The notes: a model not told the origin generated them from the sequence alone. DNA of 64,000 bases from an uncultured Bordetella sp. (GCA_964531455.1 CAZHFZ010000009.1:7414-71413), one strand, 5' to 3'. Counted from the first letter of the stretch, positions 1 to 12,490 are shown. Program-made: numbers and translations.

Positions 1-839
1 TTGCGCGAATCGTACTTGTGCATGAAACGCTCGCCGTCGCCGTTGAGCAGGTAACCGCCGGCGCCGCGCAGGCCCTCTTCAATGATGGTGCCGGTGATGC
101 GTGTGTCCATGCCGGCAATCAGGCCGGTCGGGTGGAACTGCACCATCTCCATATCGCGCAACTGCAGCCCGGCGCGCATCGCCATCGCCATGCCGTCGCA
201 GCTCTTGTCGCCGGAGGGGGTGTGGTATTTGTACATCGTCGGCCCGCCGCCGGTGGCCAGCAAAACCGCTTGCGCCTGCACAAACGTGAACTCGCCGCTG
301 CGCATGTCGATCATCAGCACACCGGAAACCGCAGAACCGTCCTTGTTCTTGATGAACTCGACGGCGCGGTGTTCTTCCAGCCGGTTGATGCCACGCGCCC
401 ACACCTGTTCGGCGAGGCGGTTGATGATTTCGATACCGGTCAGATCGCCCTTGTGTACGGTGCGATCGAAGGTTTGCCCAGCGAAAGCCTTCTGGTGAAT
501 CGTGCCATCGGGATTGCGGTCAAAGAAACAGCCGAGTTCGTTTTCCAGTTCATGGATGCGCTCGATGGCTTTTTCCACGAGTGTCCACGCCAGGTCCTGG
601 TCGGGCAGCCACTTGCCGCCTTCGATGGTGTCCATGAAATGGCGTTCGACTGAATCACCTTCGGCAAGCGCGACGTTGTACCCGCCCTGCACCATGCGTG
701 TGCAGCCGCTTTTGCCGAGCAGGCCTTTCACCGCAACGGTGATCGACAGTTCGGGGTTGTGCTGATGGGCATGCAGCGCGGCAAACAGGCCGGCGCCGCC
801 GGAGCCGAGAATCAGAATGTCGGTTTTGATTGTTTTCAT
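1..839 (-). CDS. FAD-dependent oxidoreductase, succinate dehydrogenase/fumarate reductase flavoprotein (SdhA/FrdA)-like; 3' end lies outside the window
   Basis: The minus-strand frame is open from ATG 839-837 to the window edge, so it is absent from the ORF track (no stop in window). My translation is MKTIKTDILILGSGGAGLFAAL (GxGxxG) ... KSGCTRMVQGG ... MVQFHPTG ... EEGLRGAGGYLLN, colinear with SdhA/FrdA/NadB flavoproteins. Confidence 0.8.
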   Translation of the reverse strand, partial: MKTIKTDILILGSGGAGLFAALHAHQHNPELSITVAVKGLLGKSGCTRMVQGGYNVALAEGDSVERHFMDTIEGGKWLPDQDLAWTLVEKAIERIHELENELGCFFDRNPDGTIHQKAFAGQTFDRTVHKGDLTGIEIINRLAEQVWARGINRLEEHRAVEFIKNKDGSAVSGVLMIDMRSGEFTFVQAQAVLLATGGGPTMYKYHTPSGDKSCDGMAMAMRAGLQLRDMEMVQFHPTGLIAGMDTRITGTIIEEGLRGAGGYLLNGDGERFMHKYDSR

Positions 840-857
840 AAAGATTAAAACCTTTTA

Positions 858-949
858 GCCACAGAGAGCACAGAGAACACAGAGAAAACCGAAACCATTG
901 CGATCGAGATCGTCTTGCTGTTCTCTGTGTTCTCTGTGTCCTCTGTGGC
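858..949. repeat. Long imperfect inverted repeat (29-nt arms, 34-nt spacer) built from tandem CACAGAGA units
   Basis: gccacagagagcacagagaacacagagaa (858-886) and ttctctgtgttctctgtgtcctctgtggc (921-949) are reverse complements at 27/29 positions. Each arm is three tandem 9-10 nt CACAGAGA units. The element lies in the 122-nt gap between two co-oriented CDSs. Confidence 0.85.
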
Positions 950-961
950 TTGTTTTGAATT

Positions 962-1573
962 TCAGCTTTTCACACCTAACGCCGCGAGCACGCTTGCGCG
1001 CTGGTCCTTGGCGGCGGCGTTGACCGCGGTATACAGACTGCCGCCATGGGAATCCATCGCCACCAGCAGCGGGCCGAAGCCCTTGATGCGGAATTTCCAC
1101 AACGATTCGGGATTGAGGTCGTCGAGATCAACTTCTTCGATCTGTTCGATCCAGGTCGTTTCCAGCGCGGCGGTGCCGCCGATGATCGCCAAATACACAC
1201 CGCCAAGGTCAGCAAAGGCTTTGGCCGAAGCGGCAAACAACCCACCCTTGCCGATGATGATGCGCACCCCGTACTGCTCCATCAGCGGACGCGTGAAACG
1301 CTCCATGCGCGCGCTGGTGGTGGTACCGATGCAGATCGGCGCGTAGCCCGAAGGATGCGCCTGCGTCTCACCGACCCATTTGACGTTGGGGGCGGTGTGC
1401 ACCACCGCATGTCCCTTCAGATCGAAACGGGTCTTGCGACCATGGTCGAACATGTGGATCTGCGTGGCATCACGGATGCCGTACAGCGTCTGGTGCAGCG
1501 TGACCGTATCGTTGATACGCAGTTTTCGGACCTGCTCTTCCGTCACCGGCATATTGAGTTCGTAGTGCGCCAT
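962..1573 (-). CDS. Fe-S type hydro-lyase beta subunit (class I fumarate hydratase C-terminal domain / L(+)-tartrate dehydratase TtdB-like)
   Basis: 203-aa ORF containing GTTTSARMERF and IIGKGG motifs typical of the FumA C-terminal / TtdB domain. It sits 15 nt downstream of the alpha subunit gene. Confidence 0.85.
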   Translation of the reverse strand: MAHYELNMPVTEEQVRKLRINDTVTLHQTLYGIRDATQIHMFDHGRKTRFDLKGHAVVHTAPNVKWVGETQAHPSGYAPICIGTTTSARMERFTRPLMEQYGVRIIIGKGGLFAASAKAFADLGGVYLAIIGGTAALETTWIEQIEEVDLDDLNPESLWKFRIKGFGPLLVAMDSHGGSLYTAVNAAAKDQRASVLAALGVKS

Positions 1574-1588
1574 ATCGGTATCCCGTAT

Positions 1589-2464
1589 CTAGTACCCGTA
1601 CGTCAGGCCTTGCGGCGTGAAGGTGGCGCGCGCGCGCCGCGCCGAATGGCACTGCATATTGACCGCAACAGGGTTCATCGTGATGTGCGTGGCTGCCGTT
1701 TCAACATGCACCGCAAACGCGGTGGAATCGCCGCCCAGGCCCTGGGCGCCGACGCCCAGTTTATTGACCACGGCACTGAGTTCAGCTTCAAGCTTCGCGC
1801 CTTCCGGATCTTCACATTGACTGCCCAGCGGCCGTGTCGCCGCGACTTTGGACAGGTGCACGCACAGATCAGCCGTACCGCCAACGCCGACGCCGACAAT
1901 CACCGGCGGGCAGCTCTTGCCCCCGGCCTCAAGCACGCAGTCAATGACAAAGGTCTTGATCGCGTCGATGCCGTCAGCGGGTATCGCCATTTTCAGCCAC
2001 GAGTTGTTCTCCGAACCCGAACCCTTCGGAATCATCTCGATCGACAGCGTTTCAGCCTGCGCCGAAAAATCGATGTTGATCACCGGCACATGACGGCCCC
2101 CGGAGGTGTGCAGATTTTTGCGCGTGGTTGGATGCACCACCGAGGAACGCAACGGATGCTCCTGGGTGGCGCGGGTGCAGCCACTGACGATCGCCTGCTT
2201 CAGCGCGTGACCGTCAACTTCGACACCGCTACCGATCACCACGTTGTAAATCGGGATGCCCGTGTCTTGGCACAGCAGGTTGGTGTTGTCCTCAGCCACG
2301 GTGATATTGCGGATCATGGTGCCGAGGATGGCCTTGCCGGTGGCATTGGTTTCGGCGCGGTCCAGTCGCTGAAATCCCTGCTTGATGTCCGGCGGCAGCA
2401 TCTTGAGCGCGCGTATATAGAGCTCTTTGCACGCTTCTTCTAACTGTTTGAGATCGACCTTCAC
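1589..2464 (-). CDS. Fe-S type hydro-lyase alpha subunit (class I fumarate hydratase N-terminal domain / TtdA-like)
   Basis: The ORF contains LLCQDTGIP, GGKSCPP and NMQCHS, the three Cys ligands of the 4Fe-4S hydro-lyase family. I prefer the GTG start at 2464 (gaagg RBS 7 nt upstream) over the track start at 2524. Confidence 0.85.
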   Translation of the reverse strand: MKVDLKQLEEACKELYIRALKMLPPDIKQGFQRLDRAETNATGKAILGTMIRNITVAEDNTNLLCQDTGIPIYNVVIGSGVEVDGHALKQAIVSGCTRATQEHPLRSSVVHPTTRKNLHTSGGRHVPVINIDFSAQAETLSIEMIPKGSGSENNSWLKMAIPADGIDAIKTFVIDCVLEAGGKSCPPVIVGVGVGGTADLCVHLSKVAATRPLGSQCEDPEGAKLEAELSAVVNKLGVGAQGLGGDSTAFAVHVETAATHITMNPVAVNMQCHSARRARATFTPQGLTYGY

Positions 2465-2546
2465 GAATACACCTTCACTTGAATGAAAACCCGGGGACCG
2501 GTGCAGGGCATCGCGCCCGCACAAGCCGGCCGCCGTGATTGTTGCG

Positions 2547-3509
2547 TTACTTCACTTGCAGATTGCGTTCCTTGATGATCTTGGCCCAGCGCGCCGACTC
2601 CGCCTTGATGTCTTTTGCAAATTCCTCAGACGTGTTTCCGACAGTTGTCATGCCGATTTCGTTGATGCGCTTGCGCAAATCCGCACCGCCCAGCGCCTTT
2701 ACCGTGTCAGCGTGCACCTTTGCGATGACAGCCTTCGGCGTGCCGGTCGGAACCATAAAGCCGAACCAGCCGAGGTTTTCAAAACCAGGCAGCGTTTCTG
2801 CGACAGCCGGCACATTCGGCAGTTGTGCGGAACGCTCCTTGCTGGTCACCGCCAGAGCGCGCAGTTTGCCGGAATTGACGAGTGAAATTGCCGCGGACAG
2901 GTTGGGCGTGACGAACTGGATCTGACCGCCGACGAGATCACTCACTGCCGGACCTTCACCCTTGTATGGCACGTGTGTGACATCAATGCCCGATGCGTAA
3001 ATGAAATTCTCCGCAGCGAGGTGCGTCTGCGTGCCGACACCGGCCGAGCCGAATGTCATCGACTTCGGCTTGGCCTTGGCCAGCGCGATGAATTCCTTCA
3101 GCGTTTTTGCCGGATTGCTCGGATTGACAACAATGGCCTGTGGTCCGCTGGCCACATTGGTTACTGCGACCAGATCCTTCTCCGGGCTGAAAGGCATTTT
3201 TGCGTACATATGCTGGTTGGCCGTGACAATCGAGCCGGAGGTCATGAACAGCGTGTAGCCGTCCGGGTTTGACTTGGCGGCAATGTCGCCGCCGATGTTG
3301 CCGCCGGCCCCGGCGCGATTGTCGACCACCACCGGCTGCGCCCAACCTTCATTGAGTTTCTGCGCCACCAGTCGCGCCACGATATCGGTGGCGCCGCCGG
3401 GCGCAAACGGCACGATAATTCGCACCGGACGGTTGGGATAAACATCTGCAGCAAACGCTGTGGATGCGGCGAACATGCATGCCGCGGCGATCAATCCTGC
3501 TTTGCTCAT
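2547..3509 (-). CDS. Tripartite tricarboxylate transporter substrate-binding protein (Bug/TctC family), periplasmic
   Basis: MSKAGLIAAACMFAASTAFA is a signal peptide and is followed by YPNRPVRIIVPFAPGGATD, the Bug family signature. The start at 3509 is preceded by gaggag. No TctA/TctB genes are present in the window. Confidence 0.85.
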   Translation of the reverse strand: MSKAGLIAAACMFAASTAFAADVYPNRPVRIIVPFAPGGATDIVARLVAQKLNEGWAQPVVVDNRAGAGGNIGGDIAAKSNPDGYTLFMTSGSIVTANQHMYAKMPFSPEKDLVAVTNVASGPQAIVVNPSNPAKTLKEFIALAKAKPKSMTFGSAGVGTQTHLAAENFIYASGIDVTHVPYKGEGPAVSDLVGGQIQFVTPNLSAAISLVNSGKLRALAVTSKERSAQLPNVPAVAETLPGFENLGWFGFMVPTGTPKAVIAKVHADTVKALGGADLRKRINEIGMTTVGNTSEEFAKDIKAESARWAKIIKERNLQVK

Positions 3510-3607
3510 TATTTTCTCCTCACTGTCTGGTGTTGTTGGCTGCCATGCTGACCCGCGGATCACGATACCCGACGCCTCCGGGGGGAGCAAGCTACGGGCT
3601 GCTACTC

Positions 3608-5023
3608 TTAAAGTCCCAACGCTTCCGCGGCGAGAACGCGCAGATCCCGGGTCATTTTTTTGCGTATCGCCGCGTAGGCCGGTTTCTTGGCCACGTTGAT
3701 CAGTTCGTAGGGATCCTTTTCCAGGTCATAGAGCTCGTCGAGTTCGCCATTGCGTGCGCGATTGACCCAGTGAATGTATTTGTAGCGACCGGTACGAATC
3801 GCCCTGAAACTCATGCCGACCAGCCAGGGATAGGCATTCTCCGCCCAGTATTCGACAAGAAAAGACTTGCGCCAGCCGGAGCGCTTGCCACTGATCACCG
3901 GCAACAGTGAACGCCCCTGAATATGCTCTCCGGGTTTACCGCCGGCGATTTCAAGCAGCGTCGGAGCAATGTCCTGCAAAATCACCAGATCGCTCACACG
4001 TTTGCCGGCCTTGATTGATTTCGGCCAGCGTATGGTCAGCGGGGCGCGAATACCTTCCTCATAGGGGAATCGACGCTCGGGGCCGAGCCCGTGCTCGCCG
4101 AAAAAGTAGCCGTTGTCGCCTAGGAACAGGATTACCGTGTTGTCGAGTTCGCCGGTTTCCTCCAGCGCCTTGAACAACATGCCGACGCCCTCATCCACCG
4201 CCGCCATCATCGCCGCGCGCAGGCGGATCTCCTCCTGCTTGCCGGAGTGAATGGCGTCATGCATGATTTTCGAGGCCTCGGTCTTGCGCAGTTCCACCGC
4301 TTCCGCCCACACCGGTTTGTGCTTGAGGAACTCGGTGGGCTTCTGCATGTTTGGCTTCTTCGGGAATATGCATCCCTTGTACAGATTCTCGTGGCGCTTG
4401 GCCGGACGGTAGCCATCCATGCGGAACGAACCGTCAGCGGCCTGCTCGGCATCCGGATGCACCGCCTTGTGCGCAAACCACAGCGACCATGGTTTATCGG
4501 CGTTTTTCCCCTTGCGCCGGCTTTTGCTCTTGATCCAGTCGACCGCCATCGTGTTCATGATGTCGGTTACATAACCCTTGTGCTGCACGTATTTGCCGTT
4601 TTCGTTGAGCTTGGGATCGTAGAGATTGCCGTGGCCGTCATAGGCCACCCAGAAATCGTAACCGGGACGCGGCTTGCCGTCGTTGCCCATGTGCCATTTG
4701 CCGATGTGTGCGGTTTCGTATCCGAGACGTTGCAGTTCAAGGTGATAGTTCGGCAGACGATGGCTGGCCAGGTCGCGCGCGACGTTGTCGATGATGCCGT
4801 GGCGGCTGGCGTATTGGCCGGTCAGTATCGAGGCGCGGTTGGGTGAGCAGATCGACGTGGTATGGAAAGCGCGATCAAACATCACCCCCTCATGGGCAAT
4901 ACGATCAATATGCGGCGTTTTCATGTACGGATGGCCGCCGGCGCCGAACTCGTCGAAGCGCAGATCATCCACAAGGATCAGCAGGATATTCGGCTTCTTC
5001 GGTTTATTCTTTTTCATTTGCAT
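3608..5023 (-). CDS. Cys-type sulfatase (formylglycine-dependent), no signal peptide
   Basis: PNILLILVDDLR begins at residue 11. The signature CSPNRASILTG (C-x-P-x-R-x4-TG) starts at Cys59. LYDLEKDPYEL lies near the C-terminus. No N-terminal hydrophobic leader is present. Confidence 0.85.
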   Translation of the reverse strand: MQMKKNKPKKPNILLILVDDLRFDEFGAGGHPYMKTPHIDRIAHEGVMFDRAFHTTSICSPNRASILTGQYASRHGIIDNVARDLASHRLPNYHLELQRLGYETAHIGKWHMGNDGKPRPGYDFWVAYDGHGNLYDPKLNENGKYVQHKGYVTDIMNTMAVDWIKSKSRRKGKNADKPWSLWFAHKAVHPDAEQAADGSFRMDGYRPAKRHENLYKGCIFPKKPNMQKPTEFLKHKPVWAEAVELRKTEASKIMHDAIHSGKQEEIRLRAAMMAAVDEGVGMLFKALEETGELDNTVILFLGDNGYFFGEHGLGPERRFPYEEGIRAPLTIRWPKSIKAGKRVSDLVILQDIAPTLLEIAGGKPGEHIQGRSLLPVISGKRSGWRKSFLVEYWAENAYPWLVGMSFRAIRTGRYKYIHWVNRARNGELDELYDLEKDPYELINVAKKPAYAAIRKKMTRDLRVLAAEALGL

Positions 5024-5046
5024 TTACTCCGCACGATTTACGGCAA

Positions 5047-5394
5047 TCAGACCAGATTCAGAAGAAAAGCCAGAACCACCACAAGCGATACGCCGGCCGC
5101 AGTCGCGAGCAGCGTTTTCTGCCATTCGCGCCAGTCGAGAAACTCCATCATCAGCAGACGTACGCCGCCGGCCATGTGCGCGGCCAACAGCAACACCAGT
5201 CCGGTTTCGGCAAATTTCACCAGAGGGTTGTGGGTCCACTCAAGAAAGCGGTCCAGCCCTGTCGCGCCATGAAAAGCCTGACCCAGCGCCCAGAAATGCA
5301 AGGGCAGGAATAAGGTCAGCAGCAGCCCTGACAGGCGATGGACAATAAAAGCCCAGTATGCGGGATGATTGCGCGAGCGGAAATCGTTTTTCAT
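5047..5394 (-). CDS. Succinate dehydrogenase/fumarate reductase cytochrome b subunit (SdhC-like membrane anchor)
   Basis: From Met108 of the 222-aa track ORF: IVHRLSGLLL and AAHMAGGVRLLMMEF parallel E. coli SdhC HRVSGV and YHVVVGIRHMMMDF. Three hydrophobic helices are present. The start overlaps the upstream stop by 4 nt (5391-5394). Confidence 0.7.
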   Translation of the reverse strand: MKNDFRSRNHPAYWAFIVHRLSGLLLTLFLPLHFWALGQAFHGATGLDRFLEWTHNPLVKFAETGLVLLLAAHMAGGVRLLMMEFLDWREWQKTLLATAAGVSLVVVLAFLLNLV

Positions 5395-5741
5395 GCAGAA
5401 GCCCCGCCGAATACGGCCATCACCGCACGCAAGCCCCACATCGCCAGGCTCAGTCCAACGACCGCAGCAAAGACATTGGCGCCTCGACCACGCCAGTTGA
5501 ACATTTCGGCCAGTATGGTGCGCAGTCCGATTGGCGCGTGCACGGAAACCGCCGCAACAAACACGGCATAGAACATGAACCAGCCGACATTGCCCTGCGT
5601 ACGACCGAGAATCTCCGCACCGCTGAGGCCGCTGCGCACCGCATAGATCATGGTGATCAGATGCACGACGACACACACCGCAAGCACCATCGCGCTGAGC
5701 CGTTGCGCACCCCACAGCAGCACTTCGCTACGCCGGCTCAT
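5391..5741 (-). CDS. Succinate dehydrogenase/fumarate reductase hydrophobic anchor subunit (SdhD-like)
   Basis: 116-aa protein with three predicted TM helices. SVHAPIGLRTILAEM resembles the SdhD heme-ligand region HAWIGMWQVLTDY. Confidence 0.65.
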   Translation of the reverse strand: MSRRSEVLLWGAQRLSAMVLAVCVVVHLITMIYAVRSGLSGAEILGRTQGNVGWFMFYAVFVAAVSVHAPIGLRTILAEMFNWRGRGANVFAAVVGLSLAMWGLRAVMAVFGGASA

Positions 5742-5795
5742 GCGCTGCGACCCTCCCCGCAGATTAAATTTAAATTATTGTTTTTAAACATTTAT

Positions 5796-6509
5796 TTAGA
5801 TCTCACCAGATAACGTGGCGGCCAATACCGCACGCTTCAATCCGGCAATGCCGGCAGTCGGCGAAAGCCCTTTCGGACAGCGCTCGGTACAGTTCAGATG
5901 GGTATGGCAGGCATGGCAACCGGCATCACCGGCAACCGCAGCCAGGCGTTCGGCGCGCTCGGTATCGCGCACATCGTTCACCAGCGTCCACGCGCGATTG
6001 AGCGCCGCGGGGCCCAGATAATCCTTGTTCCAGGTCACTACATCGCAGGCGCTGTAGCACACGCCGCAGCCGATGCATTCGATGCCGGCATCCACACGCT
6101 TGCGTTCCTTCGATTCCGGAGACACTTGCGCAAAAGCTTCCTTGCGCGTGGTGCTGCCTGCAAAACGACCTCGCGCCTTGGCCCACTTGTCGAAGAATTC
6201 GCTCATATCGGTGACCAGATCCTTGATCACCGGCAGGTTGCGCAACGGCGCGATCTCCACCTTGTTATCTTCTGCCACCTTGTCGACATGGGTACGGCAG
6301 GTCCAGCGCGACACGCCGTTGACCGTCATGGCGCATGAGCCGCAAACGCCGACTCGACAGGCAAACCGATAGGACAGTGTCGGATCACATTTGCGCTGAA
6401 CGTAAGTCACGACATCGAGTACGGTCTGGCTTTCCTGCCGCGGCACCTCAAATTCCTGGAAGCCACCGTTTTCGCTACCGCGCCAGATTCTGACCTGAAG
6501 ATTTTCCAT
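5796..6509 (-). CDS. Succinate dehydrogenase/fumarate reductase iron-sulfur subunit (SdhB/FrdB-like)
   Basis: The CRVGVCGSCAM (2Fe-2S), CIGCGVCYSAC (4Fe-4S) and CHTHLNCTERCPKG (3Fe-4S) cluster motifs occur in canonical order. I place the start at Met33 (MENLQVRIWRG), which avoids overlap with the upstream gene. Confidence 0.85.
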   Translation of the reverse strand: MENLQVRIWRGSENGGFQEFEVPRQESQTVLDVVTYVQRKCDPTLSYRFACRVGVCGSCAMTVNGVSRWTCRTHVDKVAEDNKVEIAPLRNLPVIKDLVTDMSEFFDKWAKARGRFAGSTTRKEAFAQVSPESKERKRVDAGIECIGCGVCYSACDVVTWNKDYLGPAALNRAWTLVNDVRDTERAERLAAVAGDAGCHACHTHLNCTERCPKGLSPTAGIAGLKRAVLAATLSGEI

Positions 6510-6532
6510 ACGCAGGATTCCGTAAGACTCTA

Positions 6533-8188
6533 TTAATGTGCGCCGCCGGTTGTTGCTGCAGTCACTGTTGGCGCAGGCAGGCATTGAATCATCACATTGA
6601 CGCAAGCCGGTTTCCCGCTGGCCATTGCCCTCTGCAGTGCAGGCCGGAGTTCCGTAACACGGGTCACCAGTTCGCCATGACCACCCAGTGCCGCCACCGC
6701 CAGATCATAACGCGTGCCACCGGACAGTTCACAGCCATGTGCACGCTCCTTGCCGTAAGTGCGCAGTTGAATCTGATGTTCGGCGTTCCAGCAGGAATCG
6801 TTGCCGACCACAACCACCATCGGCACATTTGAACGCACCGCCGTATCAAACTCCATCAGATGAAAGCCGAAGGCACCGTCACCCATTACCGCGATGACCG
6901 GTGCCCCGGGGCGGACCATGCGCGCCGCAAATGCAAACGGTACCCCGCTGCCGATGGAGCCGCCGGGGCCATTGATGATGCGGGTTGGCGCGCCGATGCA
7001 GGCCTGCGCCCACTGGCCAATTTCGCCGCCGTCGGCGACAAACACCGCATCCGCTATGCCCTTGAGCGCTTCCTGCACCGCGCGACCCAGTTCGACCGGA
7101 TGCACCGGACCGGCATCGCCGCTGTTGATGTCGCGCCACGCGGCGGGACGGAAAGCCACCGCAGCGGCCACTTCGTCAAACCAGCCCTGCGCTGCTTTAC
7201 GCGTTACGGTTTTGATCAGTACGCGCACGGCCGCGGCAGAATCCGCCTCCGCCGACAGCACTACCCTGGCGGCACCGAGGTTTGTTACCGAGCGCTGCAA
7301 TACGTCGTTTTCCGGATCAATCACCGCAAAACGGCAATCAGCCGCCACTGCCGGCGTCTTGCCGAATTTCAGTGTGAAATCAGGCTGTTTGCCAAGCAGC
7401 ACCACCAGATCAGCCTTGGCCAACACGCCGGCAAAGGCGCCCAATGACGGATCATTGACCCCGCGCGGGCTTTCCATGCATACCGCCGGGACGCCGCTGG
7501 CATCAGCAAGCTGTTTCACCAACGCCGAAACCGGTGCCTGCGACATCACCGGGCCCAGTAAAATCAACGGCCTCTCCGCCGACTGCAGCAACGCTGCCAA
7601 TGCGGCAGCCGATTTACTCTCCAGGGGGTGCTCCGCGGGCGCAAATTGTGCGGCGGTTGCGATTGCGCGGTCGCCATCGGCCACCTTGGCTTCAAGCACG
7701 TCAAACGGCAGACTCAAATGCACCGGCCCCGGACGACCCGAGCGAGCAATTCGGCAGGCCTTGGCAATGTCGGCGCCCAGCGATTCGGCGCTGGATGCGG
7801 TCCACGCCGCTTTCACCAGCGGAGCGGCAATATCAGCCTGACGCATCTCCTGGAATGAGCCTCGTCCCAGTTCATTCAGTGGGGCGTGCCCTGATAACAG
7901 CACTACGGGTGACTCCGAAGCGAGCGCGGTATACAGCGCGCCGACACCATTGGCATGCCCCGGACCGCCAGTCAGCATCACAATACCCGGCTCACCGGTC
8001 AGGCGCCCCCAGGCATCGGCCATGTGTACGGCGGCTCCCTCATAACGCACGTGAGTGATGTCCAGCTTCGCTTCGATCGCCGCGTCATACAACGGCATGA
8101 TGTGATTGCCGGACAGCGAAAACACACGGGTCAATCCGGCCGCAGCCAGCGAACGAGCCAGGATATCGGCGCCGCGCAAAGGGGTCAT
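6533..8188 (-). CDS. Thiamine diphosphate-dependent enzyme (acetolactate synthase / oxalyl-CoA decarboxylase-like family)
   Basis: The N-terminal PYR domain shows HVRYEGAAVHMADAWGRLTG and GPGHANG. The ThDP-binding motif is GDGAFGFHLMEFDTAVRSNVPMVVVVGND. I place the start at Met20 (MTPLRGADILA). Confidence 0.8.
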   Translation of the reverse strand: MTPLRGADILARSLAAAGLTRVFSLSGNHIMPLYDAAIEAKLDITHVRYEGAAVHMADAWGRLTGEPGIVMLTGGPGHANGVGALYTALASESPVVLLSGHAPLNELGRGSFQEMRQADIAAPLVKAAWTASSAESLGADIAKACRIARSGRPGPVHLSLPFDVLEAKVADGDRAIATAAQFAPAEHPLESKSAAALAALLQSAERPLILLGPVMSQAPVSALVKQLADASGVPAVCMESPRGVNDPSLGAFAGVLAKADLVVLLGKQPDFTLKFGKTPAVAADCRFAVIDPENDVLQRSVTNLGAARVVLSAEADSAAAVRVLIKTVTRKAAQGWFDEVAAAVAFRPAAWRDINSGDAGPVHPVELGRAVQEALKGIADAVFVADGGEIGQWAQACIGAPTRIINGPGGSIGSGVPFAFAARMVRPGAPVIAVMGDGAFGFHLMEFDTAVRSNVPMVVVVGNDSCWNAEHQIQLRTYGKERAHGCELSGGTRYDLAVAALGGHGELVTRVTELRPALQRAMASGKPACVNVMIQCLPAPTVTAATTGGAH

Positions 8189-8298
8189 TAGCAGGTTCTC
8201 TCGTTCAAAAAAAACAAAGACCGCGCAGAATCCGCGAACAGCCACAACGCATCGCCATGCATTGCAGCCGAACCACGGACCCCTTGCGGCCTGTTGGG

Positions 8299-9468
8299 TT
8301 AAGCGCTTTCGTACAGACGGGTCAGCACAAACTCGCGATGGCCCAGCGCTTCGGCAGCGGTCAACCGTCCGTTGCAGGTGCGCAGCATGACTTCAATCAA
8401 CTCGTCGCCGGTCTGGTCGAGGTTCTTCTCCCGCTGCAGCAGGCCTGAGCAGTCGTAATCGACGTGTTCGCTCATCGTGCGCACAGTGCGCGGATTCGCG
8501 GTGAGCTTGACAACCGGCACGATCGGATTGCCGATGACATTGCCCTGGCCGGTCGGGAACAGGTGCACCACATAACCGGAGGCGGCGCACAGCGTAACCA
8601 TTTCAGCTGCGGCGGAGGATGAATCCATGAACCACAAGCCGGGCTTGGTCGGCTCTTCGGCTTTATCGAGCACGCCGATGACCTTGCACTTCTTGCCGAT
8701 TTTCTGGATGTTGCCCAGCGCTTTTTCCTCAATCGTGGTCAGACCGCCGGCAATATTGCCCTTGGTCGGCTGCGAATCGGACAGGTCGCTGGTTTTGTTT
8801 TTCTCGACGATTTCCTGGTAACGGTCAAACATGCGCATGAATTCCTTGCGCACTTCCGGAGTTGCGCAACGGTCGGCAACAATATTTTCGCCGCCGGTGA
8901 TTTCGGTGGTTTCACCGAAACACATGGTCACGCCCAGCGGCTCGAGCTTGTCGAAGGCGCTGCCGACAGTGGGATTGGAGCCGCAGCCGGAGGTCGTATC
9001 GGACTCACCGCACTTGGTCGAAACCCACAGGTCGCTGATCGGGCACTCGACGCGCTGCAGTTCGGACGCCCATTGCACGTACTCCTTGGCCACTTTGGAC
9101 GCACGCATGATGGTGTCATGGTCGCCATGCAGTTCAATGCCAAAGCCGGTGACTGGCTTGCCGGTCTTGGCAATGCCGTCGACGACTTTTTTAGCCCAGC
9201 CTTCTTCAATACAGATCACCACCACGGCGGCGACGTTGGGGTTGGCGCCCGCGCCGATGATGGTGCGGAAATGCAGGTCCAGGTCGGCGCCGAACTGCAG
9301 GCGGCCGTAAGGATGCGGAATCGCAATCGCGCCCTTGATGTTGTTGGCCACGGCTTCAGCAGCGGCGTTGGACAGATCGTCCACCGGCAGGATCAGGACA
9401 TGGTTGCGGACACCAACGCGACCGTTCTCGCGGCGGTAGCCCATGAATGTGGTTTTGCTGTCGATCAT
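8299..9468 (-). CDS. UxaA-family (altronate dehydratase C-terminal type) lyase large subunit; SuyB-like
   Basis: 389-aa ORF starting [21 protein letters not shown] and containing [11 protein letters not shown]. This is typical of the GD_AH_C / UxaA large domain encoded without its SAF domain. Confidence 0.8.
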
Positions 9469-9542
9469 TTGTATCTCCGTTTTGGATCGGAATCGGGTTC
9501 GGGTTCGTGCCGGCCTGAAAGCCAGCTTTTACAAACCGTCTT

Positions 9543-9824
9543 TTACCAACGCTTGGTTTTGATGTTGTGCACGTGGGCGTGCTCGCCGAGCTTGATGTCA
9601 GCCACGGCCTTGCCGATATCAAAACCGTATTTGATGATGGTGTCGCCCTTCTTGATCTCGCGCAACGCAGCCTTGTGCCCGATCGGAATGTCGTTAAGCG
9701 CCTTGACCTTGATCGTCGAGTCATCTTCCATGACCCAGCCAACCATCTCCTGGCCGGCCTTGATGCCTTCGATGACGGCCACGCCGACCGTGTCCTTTTT
9801 ATCGTGTACCAACAAGTGAATCAT
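9543..9824 (-). CDS. SAF-domain small subunit of a UxaA-family lyase; SuyA-like
   Basis: From Met63 of the track ORF: MIHLLVHDKKDTVGVAV ... IPIGHKAALREIKKGDTIIKYG ... HVHNIKT, a UxaA N-terminal/SAF fold. An aggagg RBS lies 5 nt upstream of ATG 9824. Confidence 0.75.
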   Translation of the reverse strand: MIHLLVHDKKDTVGVAVIEGIKAGQEMVGWVMEDDSTIKVKALNDIPIGHKAALREIKKGDTIIKYGFDIGKAVADIKLGEHAHVHNIKTKRW

Positions 9825-9919
9825 TTTGCCTCCTGGGTGAACGCTGGGTGATAAGCAAACTGTGCAACCGGAATGAAAACGGTAGTGCAGGTCCGCAGAT
9901 GCTAACTCCCGCGCTTTCA

Positions 9920-9971
9920 GGCAGTCAACTATATGACCTATATGAATCCGCGATCTGCGTGATAGACTGCC
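9920..9971. promoter_or_regulatory. Candidate operator in the divergent GntR / catabolic operon promoter region
   Basis: The inverted repeat GGCAGTC (9920-9926) / GACTGCC (9965-9971) encloses a direct repeat CTATATGA (9929-9936, 9938-9945). It ends 11 nt upstream of the GntR ATG. Confidence 0.35.
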
Positions 9972-9981
9972 GCGCGCCGCC

Positions 9982-10740
9982 ATGGACACGCCCACCCGCA
10001 TCACTGACAACCTCGCCGCCGCCCCGCTTTACCGTGAGGTGCAGTGGCAAATCACCCGAGCCCTGGCCGCAGGCGAGTGGAAGCCGGGTGAAGCCATCCC
10101 CAGCGAATCGCAGCTGGCGCGGCAGTTCAAGGTGTCCATCGGAACCATCCGTCGCGCAATTGACGAACTGGTCGCCGGCCGCATCCTGGTACGCCAGCAG
10201 GGTCGCGGCACCTTTGTCGCTACGCATAACGAAGACCGCACGTTGTTCTATTTTTTTCACGTCGTCGGCAAGGATGGCAGCCGCGAATTCCCGGTCTCCG
10301 AACTGCTGGGCTTCCGCAAGGAACGTGCCGATGCCGACGATGAAATCCAGTTCGGCCTCGCCCGCGGCAGCCGTGTCGCACGGGTCCGCAACCTGCTGAA
10401 GCTCGCCGGCAAACCGGTGGTGCTGGACGACATCACCGTGCCGACCGAGCGTTTCTCGCGCCTCGACGAATCCACCTTCCGCAATCGCGAAGGCACCATC
10501 TATGGCCTGTATCAGGCGCGTTACGGCGTCAATGTCGTACGTATCAGCGAACGACTGTCGGCCGCACATCCTCCATCAGACATCGCCGCCATCCTGTGCA
10601 TGCGTAGCGACCAACCGCTACTGCAGATTCGTCGCGTCGCTTACACATACAACGATACGCCTGTGGAATACCGTCGCAGCTGGATCAATACTGTCAACCA
10701 CGAGTACTTGAGTGACCTGTGGAAAAGCGCGGCGCGTTAA
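9982..10740 (+). CDS. GntR-family transcriptional regulator, HutC/UTRA subfamily
   Basis: The winged-helix region is PGEAIPSESQLARQFKVSIGTIRRAIDELVAGRILVRQQGRGTFV, followed by a C-terminal UTRA-like domain. The gene is divergent from the 9824-to-1 cluster. Confidence 0.85.
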   Translation: MDTPTRITDNLAAAPLYREVQWQITRALAAGEWKPGEAIPSESQLARQFKVSIGTIRRAIDELVAGRILVRQQGRGTFVATHNEDRTLFYFFHVVGKDGSREFPVSELLGFRKERADADDEIQFGLARGSRVARVRNLLKLAGKPVVLDDITVPTERFSRLDESTFRNREGTIYGLYQARYGVNVVRISERLSAAHPPSDIAAILCMRSDQPLLQIRRVAYTYNDTPVEYRRSWINTVNHEYLSDLWKSAAR

Positions 10741-10756: not shown

Positions 10757-12490
10757 CTAGAACCCGAGCTCCCGCCGTGCCACCGCGATTTGCACCGGAT
10801 CACGTGCGTTTTTCAGCAGCCATTCGAACTGCACACGTGCATCATCGCGCAAGCCGCCACGGGCCAGATTGAATCCCGCACGCAGCCGCGCAGCGGCTGC
10901 AGCATCCGCGTCCGGCGCGCTCAACGCGAGACGCAAGTGATATTCCGCCGCAAGCAGAGGCTGGCTGCCCGAATCCAGCGCGCGCGCAGTGGCAGCCAGC
11001 AGCACGCGCCCCTGCGCCAAATCGGCATGAGGCAAAACGCGTCCGGCCAGCAACCGGGTTTCAGCCGCCAGACCGTGTTCAGCCAACTGCGTAGTCAGCG
11101 TGATCCACTCCGTAAGTTGCGCCGCAGGAATGGGCGTGTTGGCCGCAGCCAACTGCCGTGTGATGGCGGCAACATCTTCGCCGCGACCGGCGCGCAAGGC
11201 CGTTGCCGCCATGCGCAGATCCCAAACCGCAGAAGCGATACCCTCTGGCGCCGGCAAACCCAGCCGGTATTGCAGCGTACGCGCATGCAGCTGCAGCGCC
11301 TCGGCCGCGCTGCCCAGCTGATAACGCGTTTCTGCCGCGAGTGCCGCCGGATCTCCGGGCCATGCGCTGAAAACCTGCAACGCGGTACGCGACAGGCGCG
11401 CAGCCAGCAGGCTGGATACAAGCTGCAGCTGGGCGGTGCGGCGCAAGGATTCGCTGCGCCCCTCACGCGCCAGATAGGCCAGGTAGGCGCGTGCCACGAC
11501 CGGTTCCGCATCTTTACGCCTCAGCGCAAACTCCAGCCAGCTGGAATCGTCCCCCGCCAGCAGTTGATGTGTATTCGCGGCACTGCGCGCGTAAACAAGA
11601 TAGGCCTCCCACATGCGGGAGGCCTCCGCTGCCGTTGCGTCAGCTCGATCAAGCAATTGCTCAATGACTTCAATTTTCAGCAGCGGGGCCGGCTGCTTTT
11701 CAGCGGCGTCGAGCAACACCCGCCACCATGCCGGATCTTCACTGCGTGCGATGCCGGCCCGCGCCTGTGCCACCACATCCGCCGGGGACATCAATCCGGT
11801 GTGCAGACGCAGGCGTAACTTGGTCGCACTACGCTCGTCCAGCAAAGCCAACCACTGCACCGCTTCCTTGACGAGCTTCAGATCAAGGAGACCCTCCACA
11901 AATTGCGTTGCCGTCGCAGTATCGAGCGGCCGGTAATCCTGCTGAAAACGCAGCATGCTGCGATAGGCCTCATCCGCCTGCCCGTCATCAATCAGACTGC
12001 GGATCACCAAAAGGCGCAGTTCGCGCAAACGCGCCGCATCCATTCCGCTGGTCCACAACGCGCGGGCCGCCTGATCACGTGCCGCAGCGCCACGCCGGAT
12101 GGCCAGCGCTGAACGAGCAGCAATGGCATGAAACCCGGCTGCAGCTGCCGCATCAACCCCGGCAGGCATTGCGGCGACACGCTGCAGCAGGATTGCATGC
12201 GATCCGGCGGACTCCAGCAATTGCAAACGCAAACGCTCCCATTCAGTCCAGCGTGGCCCGAGGACGGGCCCCTTGGGGGATGCCGCAGACGGCACACCCA
12301 TGGCCAGCGGCGCGGCAAGCACAGCCGGTTGCAGCACGTCCACACGCTGAAGTGCGAGTTGGGCTGCTCCGGCTTCAGCCAGGCTGCGTGTAGCCGCGAG
12401 TTCGTCGGCGGCTTGAACCGTCGGCGCGACCATCACTACGGTCAGGAACACGCATGAAAAAAGAGGGAAGATCAGGCGTTGCAGAATCAT
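10757..12490 (-). CDS. Hypothetical secreted Ala/Leu/Arg-rich all-helical (TPR-like) protein
   Basis: 577-aa ORF with signal peptide MILQRLIFPLFSCVFLTVVMVAPTVQA-AD. The remainder looks helical-repeat-like. I recognise no catalytic motif. The opposite-strand ORFs are Arg-rich nonsense. Confidence 0.55.
   Translation of the reverse strand: MILQRLIFPLFSCVFLTVVMVAPTVQAADELAATRSLAEAGAAQLALQRVDVLQPAVLAAPLAMGVPSAASPKGPVLGPRWTEWERLRLQLLESAGSHAILLQRVAAMPAGVDAAAAAGFHAIAARSALAIRRGAAARDQAARALWTSGMDAARLRELRLLVIRSLIDDGQADEAYRSMLRFQQDYRPLDTATATQFVEGLLDLKLVKEAVQWLALLDERSATKLRLRLHTGLMSPADVVAQARAGIARSEDPAWWRVLLDAAEKQPAPLLKIEVIEQLLDRADATAAEASRMWEAYLVYARSAANTHQLLAGDDSSWLEFALRRKDAEPVVARAYLAYLAREGRSESLRRTAQLQLVSSLLAARLSRTALQVFSAWPGDPAALAAETRYQLGSAAEALQLHARTLQYRLGLPAPEGIASAVWDLRMAATALRAGRGEDVAAITRQLAAANTPIPAAQLTEWITLTTQLAEHGLAAETRLLAGRVLPHADLAQGRVLLAATARALDSGSQPLLAAEYHLRLALSAPDADAAAAARLRAGFNLARGGLRDDARVQFEWLLKNARDPVQIAVARRELGF

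Follow-up and report, generated by a model that had tools for sequence, protein, structure and literature searches.

The left end of a 64,000-nucleotide (nt) stretch of DNA from an uncultured Bordetella sp. (GCA_964531455.1 CAZHFZ010000009.1:7414-71413; hereafter the window, in whose coordinates positions are given) carries a gene cluster in which enzymes resembling those of the tricarboxylic acid (TCA) cycle stand beside a sulfo-lyase, and the question it raises is which compound the cluster degrades. Eleven co-oriented open reading frames on the minus strand run from 9824 to the window edge and face a divergent GntR regulator gene, as described in the initial annotation. Their coordinates were confirmed, and the Pfam and NCBIfam profile searches from which domain calls were taken agreed with it for every protein except a 93-residue SAF-type subunit, which gave no Pfam match. 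The gene set had not been recognised as a characterised operon, and the literature search found no publication assigning it to a pathway.

The reading we favour, with a probability of roughly 0.5, is an operon, repressed by GntR, for the catabolism of a small sulfonated carboxylic acid, in which 3-sulfopropanoate is converted through sulfoacrylate to (2R)-sulfolactate and then to pyruvate and sulfite. Catabolism of a sulfated or sulfonated C3-C4 (hydroxy)dicarboxylate had been suggested before; organosulfur catabolism, as distinct from ordinary TCA chemistry, is upheld by the present data, a sulfated substrate is not, and the term "dicarboxylate" is probably mistaken. A C3 sulfonated monocarboxylate that mimics succinate would be the most economical choice, and by analogy 3-sulfopropanoate is the most likely one.

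In the proposed scheme, 3-sulfopropanoate, which is succinate with one carboxylate swapped for a sulfonate, would be captured by a TctC-type binding protein and oxidized to 3-sulfoacrylate by a membrane-bound four-subunit complex resembling succinate dehydrogenase (Sdh), with electrons passing to quinone. Sulfoacrylate, the counterpart of fumarate, would be hydrated by a two-subunit Fe-S hydro-lyase to (2R)-3-sulfolactate, which matches L-malate in spatial arrangement (the change of R/S label is a consequence of the priority rules alone), and SuyAB would cleave this sulfolactate to pyruvate and sulfite. A ComC-like dehydrogenase of the Ldh_2 family, encoded beyond the window edge, may interconvert (2R)-sulfolactate and sulfopyruvate as a side funnel. 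Overall, the route would be a sulfonate copy of the succinate-fumarate-malate segment of the TCA cycle. The choice of substrate, the redox direction and the regiochemistry of the hydration step are inferred.

The sulfo-lyase, the Sdh-like complex and the hydro-lyase

The two cluster genes nearest the regulator encode the small SAF-type subunit of 93 residues (9543-9824, minus strand, like all cluster genes below) and a large UxaA-type subunit of 389 residues with GD_AH_second and GD_AH_C domains (8299-9468). They lie 74 nt apart, side by side as in SuyAB, the subunits of which are of about 9 and 42 kDa. The large subunit is 82% identical to a plasmid protein of Cupriavidus pinatubonensis encoded directly after hpsN-hpsO-MFS-hpsP and 68% identical to that of the GntR-suyA-suyB-suyZ cluster of Paracoccus versutus. 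Identity drops from 62% to 39% on reaching other UxaA-family proteins, and the GarD structure (6u7l) gave only 129 bits. The small subunit, with a weak N-terminal match to galactarate dehydratase, is 62% identical to the one beside C. pinatubonensis SuyB and 58% identical to that of P. versutus. Judged by this orthology, the pair, previously called a SuyAB-like lyase, is SuyAB, (2R)-sulfolactate sulfo-lyase (EC 4.4.1.24), and the operon would therefore end in the conversion of sulfolactate to pyruvate and sulfite. SuyAB was reportedly first purified from P. pantotrophus NKNCYSA.

This end enzyme is common to the hpsNOUP-suyAB cluster for 2,3-dihydroxypropanesulfonate (DHPS) degradation in C. 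pinatubonensis (strain HN-2, plasmid p2), likewise a betaproteobacterium, where a TctC-family protein 43% identical to the first one of the window follows suyAB. There, however, sulfolactate is made from DHPS by the dehydrogenases HpsN, HpsO and HpsP, and the Sdh-like complex, the Fe-S hydro-lyase, the sulfatase and the thiamine diphosphate (ThDP) enzyme of the window have no counterpart. The Paracoccus GntR-suyAB-suyZ cluster likewise combines a divergent GntR regulator with a two-subunit sulfo-lyase, and an Ldh_2-family (ComC-type) dehydrogenase is associated with it. Compared with that cluster and with the SlcC/ComC pair that racemises sulfolactate in Chromohalobacter salexigens, the window cluster lacks a SuyZ or TauE exporter and an SlcC partner, and it adds a respiratory-complex-like dehydrogenase and a hydro-lyase.

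The added dehydrogenase has the architecture of complex II, with four subunits, three Fe-S cluster sites, a heme-b anchor and a quinone site, the residues of which were checked in 60 orthologues. The SdhB-like iron-sulfur subunit (237 residues, Fer2_3 and Fer4 domains, 5796-6509) keeps all Fe-S cysteine ligands as well as W164 and H207 of the quinone site. The SdhD-like membrane anchor (116 residues, Sdh_cyt domain, 5391-5741) keeps the heme ligand equivalent to H71 of E. coli SdhD in 60 of 60 orthologues, and the SdhC-like cytochrome b556 subunit (115 residues, Sdh_cyt domain, 5047-5394), the gene of which overlaps sdhD by 4 nt, keeps the equivalents of H84 and R31 and scores above the TIGR02970 cut-off. 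The complex is thus like the E. coli respiratory enzymes SdhCDAB and FrdABCD in its four subunits, Fe-S ligands, both heme-b histidines, quinone-site Trp and His, and flavoprotein fold, whereas its gene order is B-D-C...A, with other genes between C and A, and it keeps company with sulfite-handling genes.

Its flavoprotein departs from the canonical enzymes. The window edge cuts this SdhA-like protein after the N-terminal 279 of 571 residues (1-839); the full-length copy (locus L001, 14185-15900) carries FAD_binding_2 and Succ_DH_flav_C domains. The histidine that links flavin adenine dinucleotide (FAD) covalently (H45 in E. coli SdhA, H44 in FrdA) is absent, the segment reading GKSGCTRMVQGG where E. 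coli has TRSHTVSAQGG, and RSHT is replaced by [S/C]GCTR in 70 of 70 orthologues and in seven homologues from cultured strains or archaea. In addition, an invariant Glu occupies the position of the active-site Thr (T254 in SdhA, T244 in FrdA), and a 6-residue insert with a conserved Arg or Lys lies just before it, at the distal-carboxylate binding site. H242, E255, R286, H354 and R399 are kept, and the proximal-carboxylate and proton-shuttle residues are intact. These changes are invariant in the 70 orthologues and common to the homologues of Methylobacterium, Paracoccus, Pseudomonas, Sulfitobacter, Pseudorhizobium and a haloarchaeon. Identity is 33-35% to canonical SdhA as against 61-69% to family members in cultured bacteria, and all curated models stay below their cut-offs: TfrA, the best, at 499.7 bits (718), sdhA_forward at 342 (727) and sdhA_frdA_Gneg at 437 (567). 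On this evidence from residues and profiles, the flavoprotein is not a standard SdhA or FrdA, and the remodelled distal-carboxylate loop (Thr to Glu plus the new Arg/Lys) would be the seat of the sulfonate.

Public annotations of such proteins read only "FAD-binding protein", "L-aspartate oxidase" or "fumarate reductase flavoprotein". An L-aspartate-oxidase-like cysteate oxidase was considered and ruled out: the protein is not NadB-like because an invariant Phe, as in Sdh and fumarate reductase (Frd), stands where L-aspartate oxidase has Glu (which we take to be Glu121 in NadB), and the hydro-lyase would be left without a role. At the position of the FAD-linking His, an invariant Cys was observed within the GCT motif (residues 44-46, window about 702-710); a cysteinyl-flavin link or non-covalent FAD is a possibility.

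The class I (Fe-S) hydro-lyase consists of an alpha subunit of 291 residues (Fumerase domain, 287 bits, 1589-2464) and a beta subunit of 203 residues (Fumerase_C domain, 103 bits, 962-1573). The earlier description of this pair as TtdAB-like was ruled out by NCBIfam scores, in which it behaves as a fumarate hydratase and not as a tartrate dehydratase: the L-tartrate dehydratase equivalogs failed (TtdA 173 against 365; TtdB 133 against 264), whereas the alpha subunit exceeded the PRK06246 cut-off (297.8 against 276). The beta subunit fails all NCBIfam cut-offs. The CQDTG cluster/substrate motif is present in the alpha subunit, and the RD, GTTTSARM and GKGG anion-binding motifs of the beta subunit align with those of the M. 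jannaschii and Leishmania fumarases (7xky, 5l2r). Domains and motifs are those of two-subunit class I fumarate hydratases and TtdAB, with the difference that the window pair is always embedded in a sulfonate cluster.

Since the domain families are those of TCA enzymes, the alpha subunit passes the fumarate hydratase cut-off and the Ldh_2 family includes malate dehydrogenases, an ordinary C4-dicarboxylate module might stand beside suyAB by chance, either as spare isoenzymes of succinate dehydrogenase, fumarase and malate dehydrogenase or for conversion of tartrate through oxaloacetate, malate and fumarate to succinate, as in E. coli tartrate fermentation. This is highly improbable given the low identity to canonical SdhA and because the flavoprotein lacks two residues on which succinate oxidation depends and which E. 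coli SdhA and FrdA share. It also sits badly with a gene order that is conserved together with suyAB across dozens of species under one conserved promoter/operator, and with the sulfite exporters or dehydrogenases found near the module in 10 of 11 unrelated settings, an archaeon included.

Core and accessory genes

Conservation was followed in a scan with one genome per species, in which 371 genomes contained a close relative of the Fumerase alpha subunit. The best 80 of these 371 were analysed, with all cluster proteins compared with the 80 orthologous loci in a tblastn matrix. Almost all of these loci are labelled as metagenome-assembled genomes (MAGs) of uncultured Betaproteobacteria or Burkholderiales, and the alpha subunit is at least 82% identical across all of them. 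A core in fixed order is conserved, namely the divergent GntR followed by SuyA, SuyB, SdhB, SdhD, SdhC, TctC1, FumA, FumB, the SdhA-like flavoprotein and Ldh_2. The same order in dozens of species-level MAGs disposes of the concern that unrelated operons had been juxtaposed by chance. The ThDP enzyme, the sulfatase and TctC2 are lineage-variable inserts. For the ThDP enzyme and the sulfatase all four combinations of presence and absence were seen, with clean junctions where a gene is missing and flanks often 7-200 nt apart. The matrix thereby ruled out that the whole 11-gene set is one obligate pathway, the sulfatase, the ThDP enzyme and TctC2 being dispensable.

The cluster had been followed as far as the window edge. 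The reading frames there are as described, but the cluster continues past it to 13 genes, as seen in metagenome contigs with an identical sulfatase, which add the remainder of SdhA, a second TctC and Ldh_2. The order in these contigs is the full 571-residue SdhA-like flavoprotein, TctC2, the Ldh_2 dehydrogenase and recQ. Spacing between cluster genes is 15-122 nt apart from the sdhD-sdhC overlap.

The GntR regulator (9982-10740, plus strand) is of the HutC subfamily, with a GntR helix-turn-helix domain (PF00392) and a UTRA effector domain (PF07702); the HutC and PhnF models match below their cut-offs. It is conserved at the divergent position, with 60-93% identity, in most orthologous loci that reach far enough upstream. 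Upstream of suyA, a promoter-like site lies at 9928-9899, within a putative operator/promoter footprint (9899-9947, minus strand) of the form ATTCATATAGGTCAT[A/C]TAGTTGAC with a spacing of 17-18 nt and a TAGCAT −10 box. In 41 distinct orthologous GntR-suyA intergenic regions, which have otherwise diverged in sequence, the footprint motif, overlapping the −35 box, retains at least 80% conservation. It is probably the operator to which GntR would bind, with ATTCATATAGGTCATATAGTTGAC as the putative operator sequence. Together with the short intergenic gaps, the conserved footprint fits a single regulated operon and promoter. A terminator scan gave counts not above those of shuffled controls and hence no evidence either way on internal termination.

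The sulfatase (3608-5023, 471 residues, Sulfatase and SGSH_C domains) is the accessory gene on which the previous substrate idea had laid its emphasis. It is a Cys-type (formylglycine) S1 sulfatase, and its description as leaderless holds: the first beta-strand begins at residue 11, which leaves no room for a signal peptide, and a cytoplasmic enzyme is predicted. The CSPNRASILTG motif at residue 59 (conserved in 48 of 51 orthologues) and the second signature GYETAHIGKWH are intact, the Pfam Sulfatase score is 164.6 bits, and the nearest structures are N-acetylglucosamine-6-sulfatases. As first proposed, the sulfatase would be the entry enzyme, de-esterifying a sulfated hydroxy acid whose skeleton would then pass to the lyase, the hydro-lyase and the Sdh-like complex. 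The intact catalytic motifs, a cytoplasmic location like that of small-molecule sulfatases such as choline sulfatase, and a constant slot next to the TctC gene whenever it is present speak for such a role. We nevertheless consider it very doubtful, since many orthologous clusters with an otherwise complete core lack the gene and show clean junctions in its place; cultured strains carry the Sdh-like/Fum-like module and SuyAB without any sulfatase; and orthologues of 73-78% identity stand alone or in a ComA-sulfatase-TctC unit elsewhere. The emphasis on a sulfated substrate is thus unsupported because the sulfatase and the ThDP enzyme are accessory inserts and a sulfatase orthologue also occurs outside the cluster.

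The family is large, with more than 6,700 matches, of which the top 120 are at least 74% identical. One orthologue of about 75% identity stands alone in an unrelated context, and another, 78% identical, belongs to a stand-alone unit sulfatase2-ComA-sulfatase-TctC beside RraA-like, MR_MLE and LysR genes. Within two orthologous suy clusters, ComA directly precedes the sulfatase. A recurring ComA-sulfatase-TctC triad was observed at L107 (5606-10398), L065 (3931-6175) and L088 (6804-8992). This recurrence beside ComA and TctC links the sulfatase to them rather than to the Sdh-like module, and it suggests that the "sulfatase" acts on a (phospho/sulfo)lactate-type ester; the enzyme might be either an analogue of phosphosulfolactate phosphatase or a genuine sulfatase acting on an O-sulfated C3 acid.

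The variable hot-spots of the orthologous clusters are the slots between SdhC and TctC1 and between TctC1 and FumA. Among other MAGs, these slots are variously taken up by a TauE sulfite exporter, a gene of the ComA (phosphosulfolactate synthase) family, a DUF3604 protein, or an ATPase and permease of the ABC type that resemble TauBC. The TauE, ComA-family and TauBC-like genes point to sulfonates. The DUF3604 protein of about 750 residues was seen in the sulfatase slot in L034 (1299-3557), L041 (4989-7235), L042 (4767-7256) and L045 (255-2555), and it may be a non-orthologous substitute hydrolase for the sulfatase.

The ThDP-dependent enzyme (6533-8188, 551 residues, alternative GTG start at 8245) has TPP_enzyme_N, M and C domains and lies below every NCBIfam cut-off. 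Xsc (sulfoacetaldehyde acetyltransferase) models gave about 154-171 bits; TIGR03457 reached 154 against a cut-off of 676 in a match split into two stretches. Among solved structures, it comes closest to 2-hydroxyacyl-CoA lyase and oxalyl-CoA decarboxylase, and it does not group with Xsc. Many orthologous clusters lack the gene, with a gap of 7-140 nt in its place. Sulfopyruvate decarboxylation is a guess at its function.

The first TctC/Bug protein (2547-3509, 320 residues, TctC domain) is a periplasmic solute-binding protein with a predicted signal peptide. It is a core gene, yet no TctA or TctB is encoded in the cluster. Binding proteins of the tripartite tricarboxylate transporter (TTT) family for small sulfo-carboxylates are documented, such as SauZ for sulfoacetate. 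The Ldh_2 protein (Pfam Ldh_2, 325 bits) has ComC as its best NCBIfam model (206 bits against a cut-off of 500) and DpkA, then ComC, as its closest solved structures, and is 42% identical to the Ldh_2 proteins of the Methylobacterium and Paracoccus sulfolactate clusters.

The module in other genomes and the choice of substrate

Outside the betaproteobacterial MAGs, SdhA-like orthologues of 49-69% identity were found in eleven independent settings, ten bacterial and one haloarchaeal. SdhB-D-C-A-like genes adjoin a hydro-lyase in each of them, and TauE exporters and/or sulfite dehydrogenases lie within about 10 kb in 10 of the 11, with a YeiH exporter too in several. On pMRAD01 of Methylobacterium radiotolerans, the order is GntR-Ldh_2-oxidoreductase-DctA-SuyB-SuyA, then TauE, then a solute-binding protein-ThDP-SdhA-like-FumB-FumA-SdhC-D-B; its ThDP protein is an orthologue 56% identical to that of the window, and this enzyme recurs in Sulfitobacter and Marivita. 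On pTAV3 of P. versutus, the module is accompanied by a YeiH exporter, NIPSNAP and TauE and is part of an organosulfonate island in which an Ldh_2/hydroxyacid dehydrogenase, hpsN-like genes and suyAB are also found; the module lies about 20 kb from suyAB, under a separate regulator.

In M. nodulans there are two sulfite dehydrogenases, YeiH and TauE, and in Pseudomonas sp. MPC6 a TTT transporter, TauE, YeiH and a sulfite oxidase, with a CoA-acylating (methyl)malonate-semialdehyde dehydrogenase gene that begins at the last base of fumB. Sulfitobacter THAF37 has TauE, a TTT transporter, a ThDP enzyme and an aminotransferase, and Pseudorhizobium banfieldiae NT-26 has YeiH, TauE, a tripartite ATP-independent periplasmic (TRAP) transporter and a succinate-semialdehyde dehydrogenase (SSADH)-like gene. 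TauE is also found in Yoonia, together with an aldehyde dehydrogenase, and in Marivita and Hoeflea, where a Mo sulfite dehydrogenase follows the module directly. P. seriniphilus is the exception, with a TTT transporter and only a YeiH-family gene in the stretch. The archaeal setting, on a Natribaculum luteum plasmid (L102, 5488-12456), comprises SuyAB-like genes, TauE, an ArgH-type lyase of the class II fumarase superfamily that replaces the class I hydro-lyase without being orthologous to it, the SdhA-like flavoprotein (49% identical) and SdhB; no membrane anchor genes are annotated beside the latter two.

Two types of hydro-lyase pair with the one SdhA-like family. Type 1 is that of the window (962-2464), and type 2 is exemplified by L097 (10983-12604), L099 (12740-14409) and L098 (12892-14528). 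The Methylobacterium proteins, with suyAB in cis, are 67% (FumA) and 63% (FumB) identical to those of the window, and among the plasmids searched this FumA is the only orthologue. The pairs of P. versutus and MPC6 are 31-37% (alpha) and 28% (beta) identical despite the same flavoprotein family, and FumA matches in C. necator N-1 and Cupriavidus sp. P-10 reach only about 35%. Type 1 accompanies suyAB in cis; the companions of type 2 are YeiH, TauE, NIPSNAP and sulfite dehydrogenase, with no suyAB in cis. No cis-encoded suyAB was found in M. nodulans, MPC6, THAF37, NT-26 or the P. seriniphilus replicon that bears the module. In type 2 clusters, hydration may take place at the sulfonated carbon, giving an alpha-hydroxysulfonate that would shed bisulfite spontaneously and leave malonate semialdehyde; this scheme fits the MmsA gene and the absence of suyAB in MPC6.

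With 3-sulfopropanoate as the preferred substrate, several points weigh against the proposed route. Loss of the covalent-FAD His argues against oxidation of a succinate-like C-C bond, since E. coli FrdA H44 mutants are reported to keep fumarate reduction and lose succinate oxidation. The hydro-lyase beta subunit does not discriminate between carboxylate and sulfonate because all anion-binding motifs of true fumarases are kept. Ldh_2 belongs to the core, yet the scheme gives it no essential role and also leaves the sulfatase and ThDP genes unexplained. The 64-kb window was searched for a sulfite exporter, a sulfite dehydrogenase and a formylglycine-generating enzyme, and none was found. Finally, the proteins are tied to 3-sulfopropanoate by inference from analogy and from neighbouring genes.

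The main rival substrate is sulfosuccinate (C4), which would be oxidized to sulfofumarate, hydrated to 3-sulfomalate and oxidized by Ldh_2 to sulfo-oxaloacetate; loss of CO2 would give sulfopyruvate, reduced by Ldh_2 to the (2R)-sulfolactate that SuyAB cleaves. Where a cluster lacks SuyAB, addition of water at the sulfonated carbon would yield an unstable adduct and hence oxaloacetate and sulfite. Such a route would give the core Ldh_2 an essential, redox-neutral role, used twice, and would agree with the retention of both carboxylate-anchoring sets of complex II (H242, R286, H354, R399) and with the tri-anionic acids that are classical TctC ligands; minimal clusters of TTT, Sdh-like, Fum-like and sulfite genes would need no further enzyme. 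It is nonetheless unlikely. The replaced Thr and remodelled loop fit a changed anion at that site better than an extra substituent elsewhere, and more steps are needed. The malonate-semialdehyde dehydrogenase of MPC6, the SSADH-like gene of NT-26 (with its TRAP transporter) and the aldehyde dehydrogenase of Yoonia are hints of a C3 substrate. Sulfosuccinate is, moreover, known mainly as a man-made surfactant fragment, whereas genomes from groundwater, peat, marine and hypersaline sites often carry the module.

The missing FAD-linking His also bears on whether the complex works as an oxidase or a reductase of its substrate. This His is likewise lacking in soluble and thiol-dependent fumarate reductases, the best NCBIfam match of the flavoprotein is TfrA, a thiol:fumarate reductase, and many host MAGs come from groundwater and sediments. 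The complex might then act in reverse as an electron sink at low oxygen ("sulfoacrylate respiration"), with imported sulfolactate partly split by SuyAB and the rest dehydrated to sulfoacrylate, which a complex like fumarate reductase would reduce to 3-sulfopropanoate for excretion. This appears quite unlikely, as the module is common in aerobic marine Roseobacters, the SdhCD heme-b anchor is typical of succinate:ubiquinone oxidoreductases, and aldehyde dehydrogenases that would make 3-sulfopropanoate adjoin the module. Furthermore, the module often occurs with sulfite dehydrogenases even without SuyAB nearby, and therefore the module itself would lead to sulfite release.

The literature searched described no genes or enzymes for the conversion of 3-sulfopropanoate to sulfolactate and gave no assignment for sulfosuccinate desulfonation or for this gene combination, and a review of January 2026 calls the mechanism of 3-sulfopropanoate degradation still unclear. 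PMC11489063 cites a thesis in which R. nubinhibens ISM degrades 3-sulfopropanoate via sulfoacrylate and sulfolactate, and describes degradation as otherwise unreported; it also cites enzymes of the γ-aminobutyrate type that make 3-sulfopropanoate from homotaurine, as in Cupriavidus necator H16. The intermediates cited there are the same as those proposed here. Roseovarius nubinhibens was not among the 120 matches listed in a search with a Roseobacter orthologue.

Tentatively, and with the balance of doubt slightly against it, the Sdh-like flavoprotein, its Fe-S and heme-b partners and the hydro-lyase may form an unrecognised and widespread desulfonation module. In it, a complex-II paralogue would oxidize the C-C bond of 3-sulfopropanoate in place of that of succinate, and two flavours of hydro-lyase would make either sulfolactate for SuyAB or, by hydrating the sulfonated carbon with spontaneous release of sulfite, malonate semialdehyde. 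For microbes of freshwater, soil, marine and hypersaline habitats, the module would supply a missing route of 3-sulfopropanoate mineralisation. Bacteria with homotaurine as their nitrogen source release 3-sulfopropanoate, and so do gut and other anaerobes during the fermentation of sulfoquinovose or DHPS, both counted among the most abundant organosulfur compounds. If the proposal is true, a gap in the organic sulfur cycle would be closed by returning 3-sulfopropanoate to sulfite or sulfate. Many proteins labelled "FAD-binding protein", "L-aspartate oxidase", "fumarate reductase" or "fumarate hydratase" would be reassigned, and respiratory complex II would provide a clear case of retooling for a non-dicarboxylate substrate. 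The proposal is directly testable because the module is carried on plasmids of the culturable M. radiotolerans JCM 2831, P. versutus, C. necator N-1, Pseudomonas sp. MPC6 and P. banfieldiae NT-26.

Intergenic hairpin and chromosomal surroundings

Between the fumB stop (962) and the start of the SdhA-like gene (839) lies a hairpin of about 92 nt built from 9-nt repeats (858-949, minus strand). Its units are three tandem 9-mers, CCACAGAGG ACACAGAGA ACACAGAGA, and inverted copies of them. The minimum free energy is −58.6 kcal/mol (z = −9.1), and the element is single-copy in the 64-kb window. Analogous hairpins occupy the same junction in many orthologous loci, with species-specific 9-mers (CGCCAAGAC, CGCAAAGGA, CGCAGATAG, CACGAAGGA and others), and some orthologous clusters have only a 6-nt gap there. 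An Rfam scan of the region returned only spurious plant microRNA hairpin matches to it. The hairpin is either a REP-like element that has landed here repeatedly or a selected mRNA structure.

The chromosomal site of the sulfonate operon, between rplS and recQ, is conserved. Upstream of GntR, a 577-residue protein of no known function is encoded, followed by rplS-trmD-rimM-rpsP. This protein (10757-12490, minus strand) is rich in Ala and Leu, has a signal-like N-terminal segment and gave no Pfam or NCBIfam match; it is absent from L007 and holds the position between rplS and GntR in many orthologous loci, with 35-80% identity. The remainder of the window (12500-64000) is housekeeping in character, with rplS-trmD-rimM-rpsP, ffh, pilC/pilD, coaE, zapD, argJ, secA and lpxC, the full dcw cluster from mraZ to ftsZ, and a DAO-DUF1365-CFA-synthase-MFS-SDR cluster near 56-62 kb.

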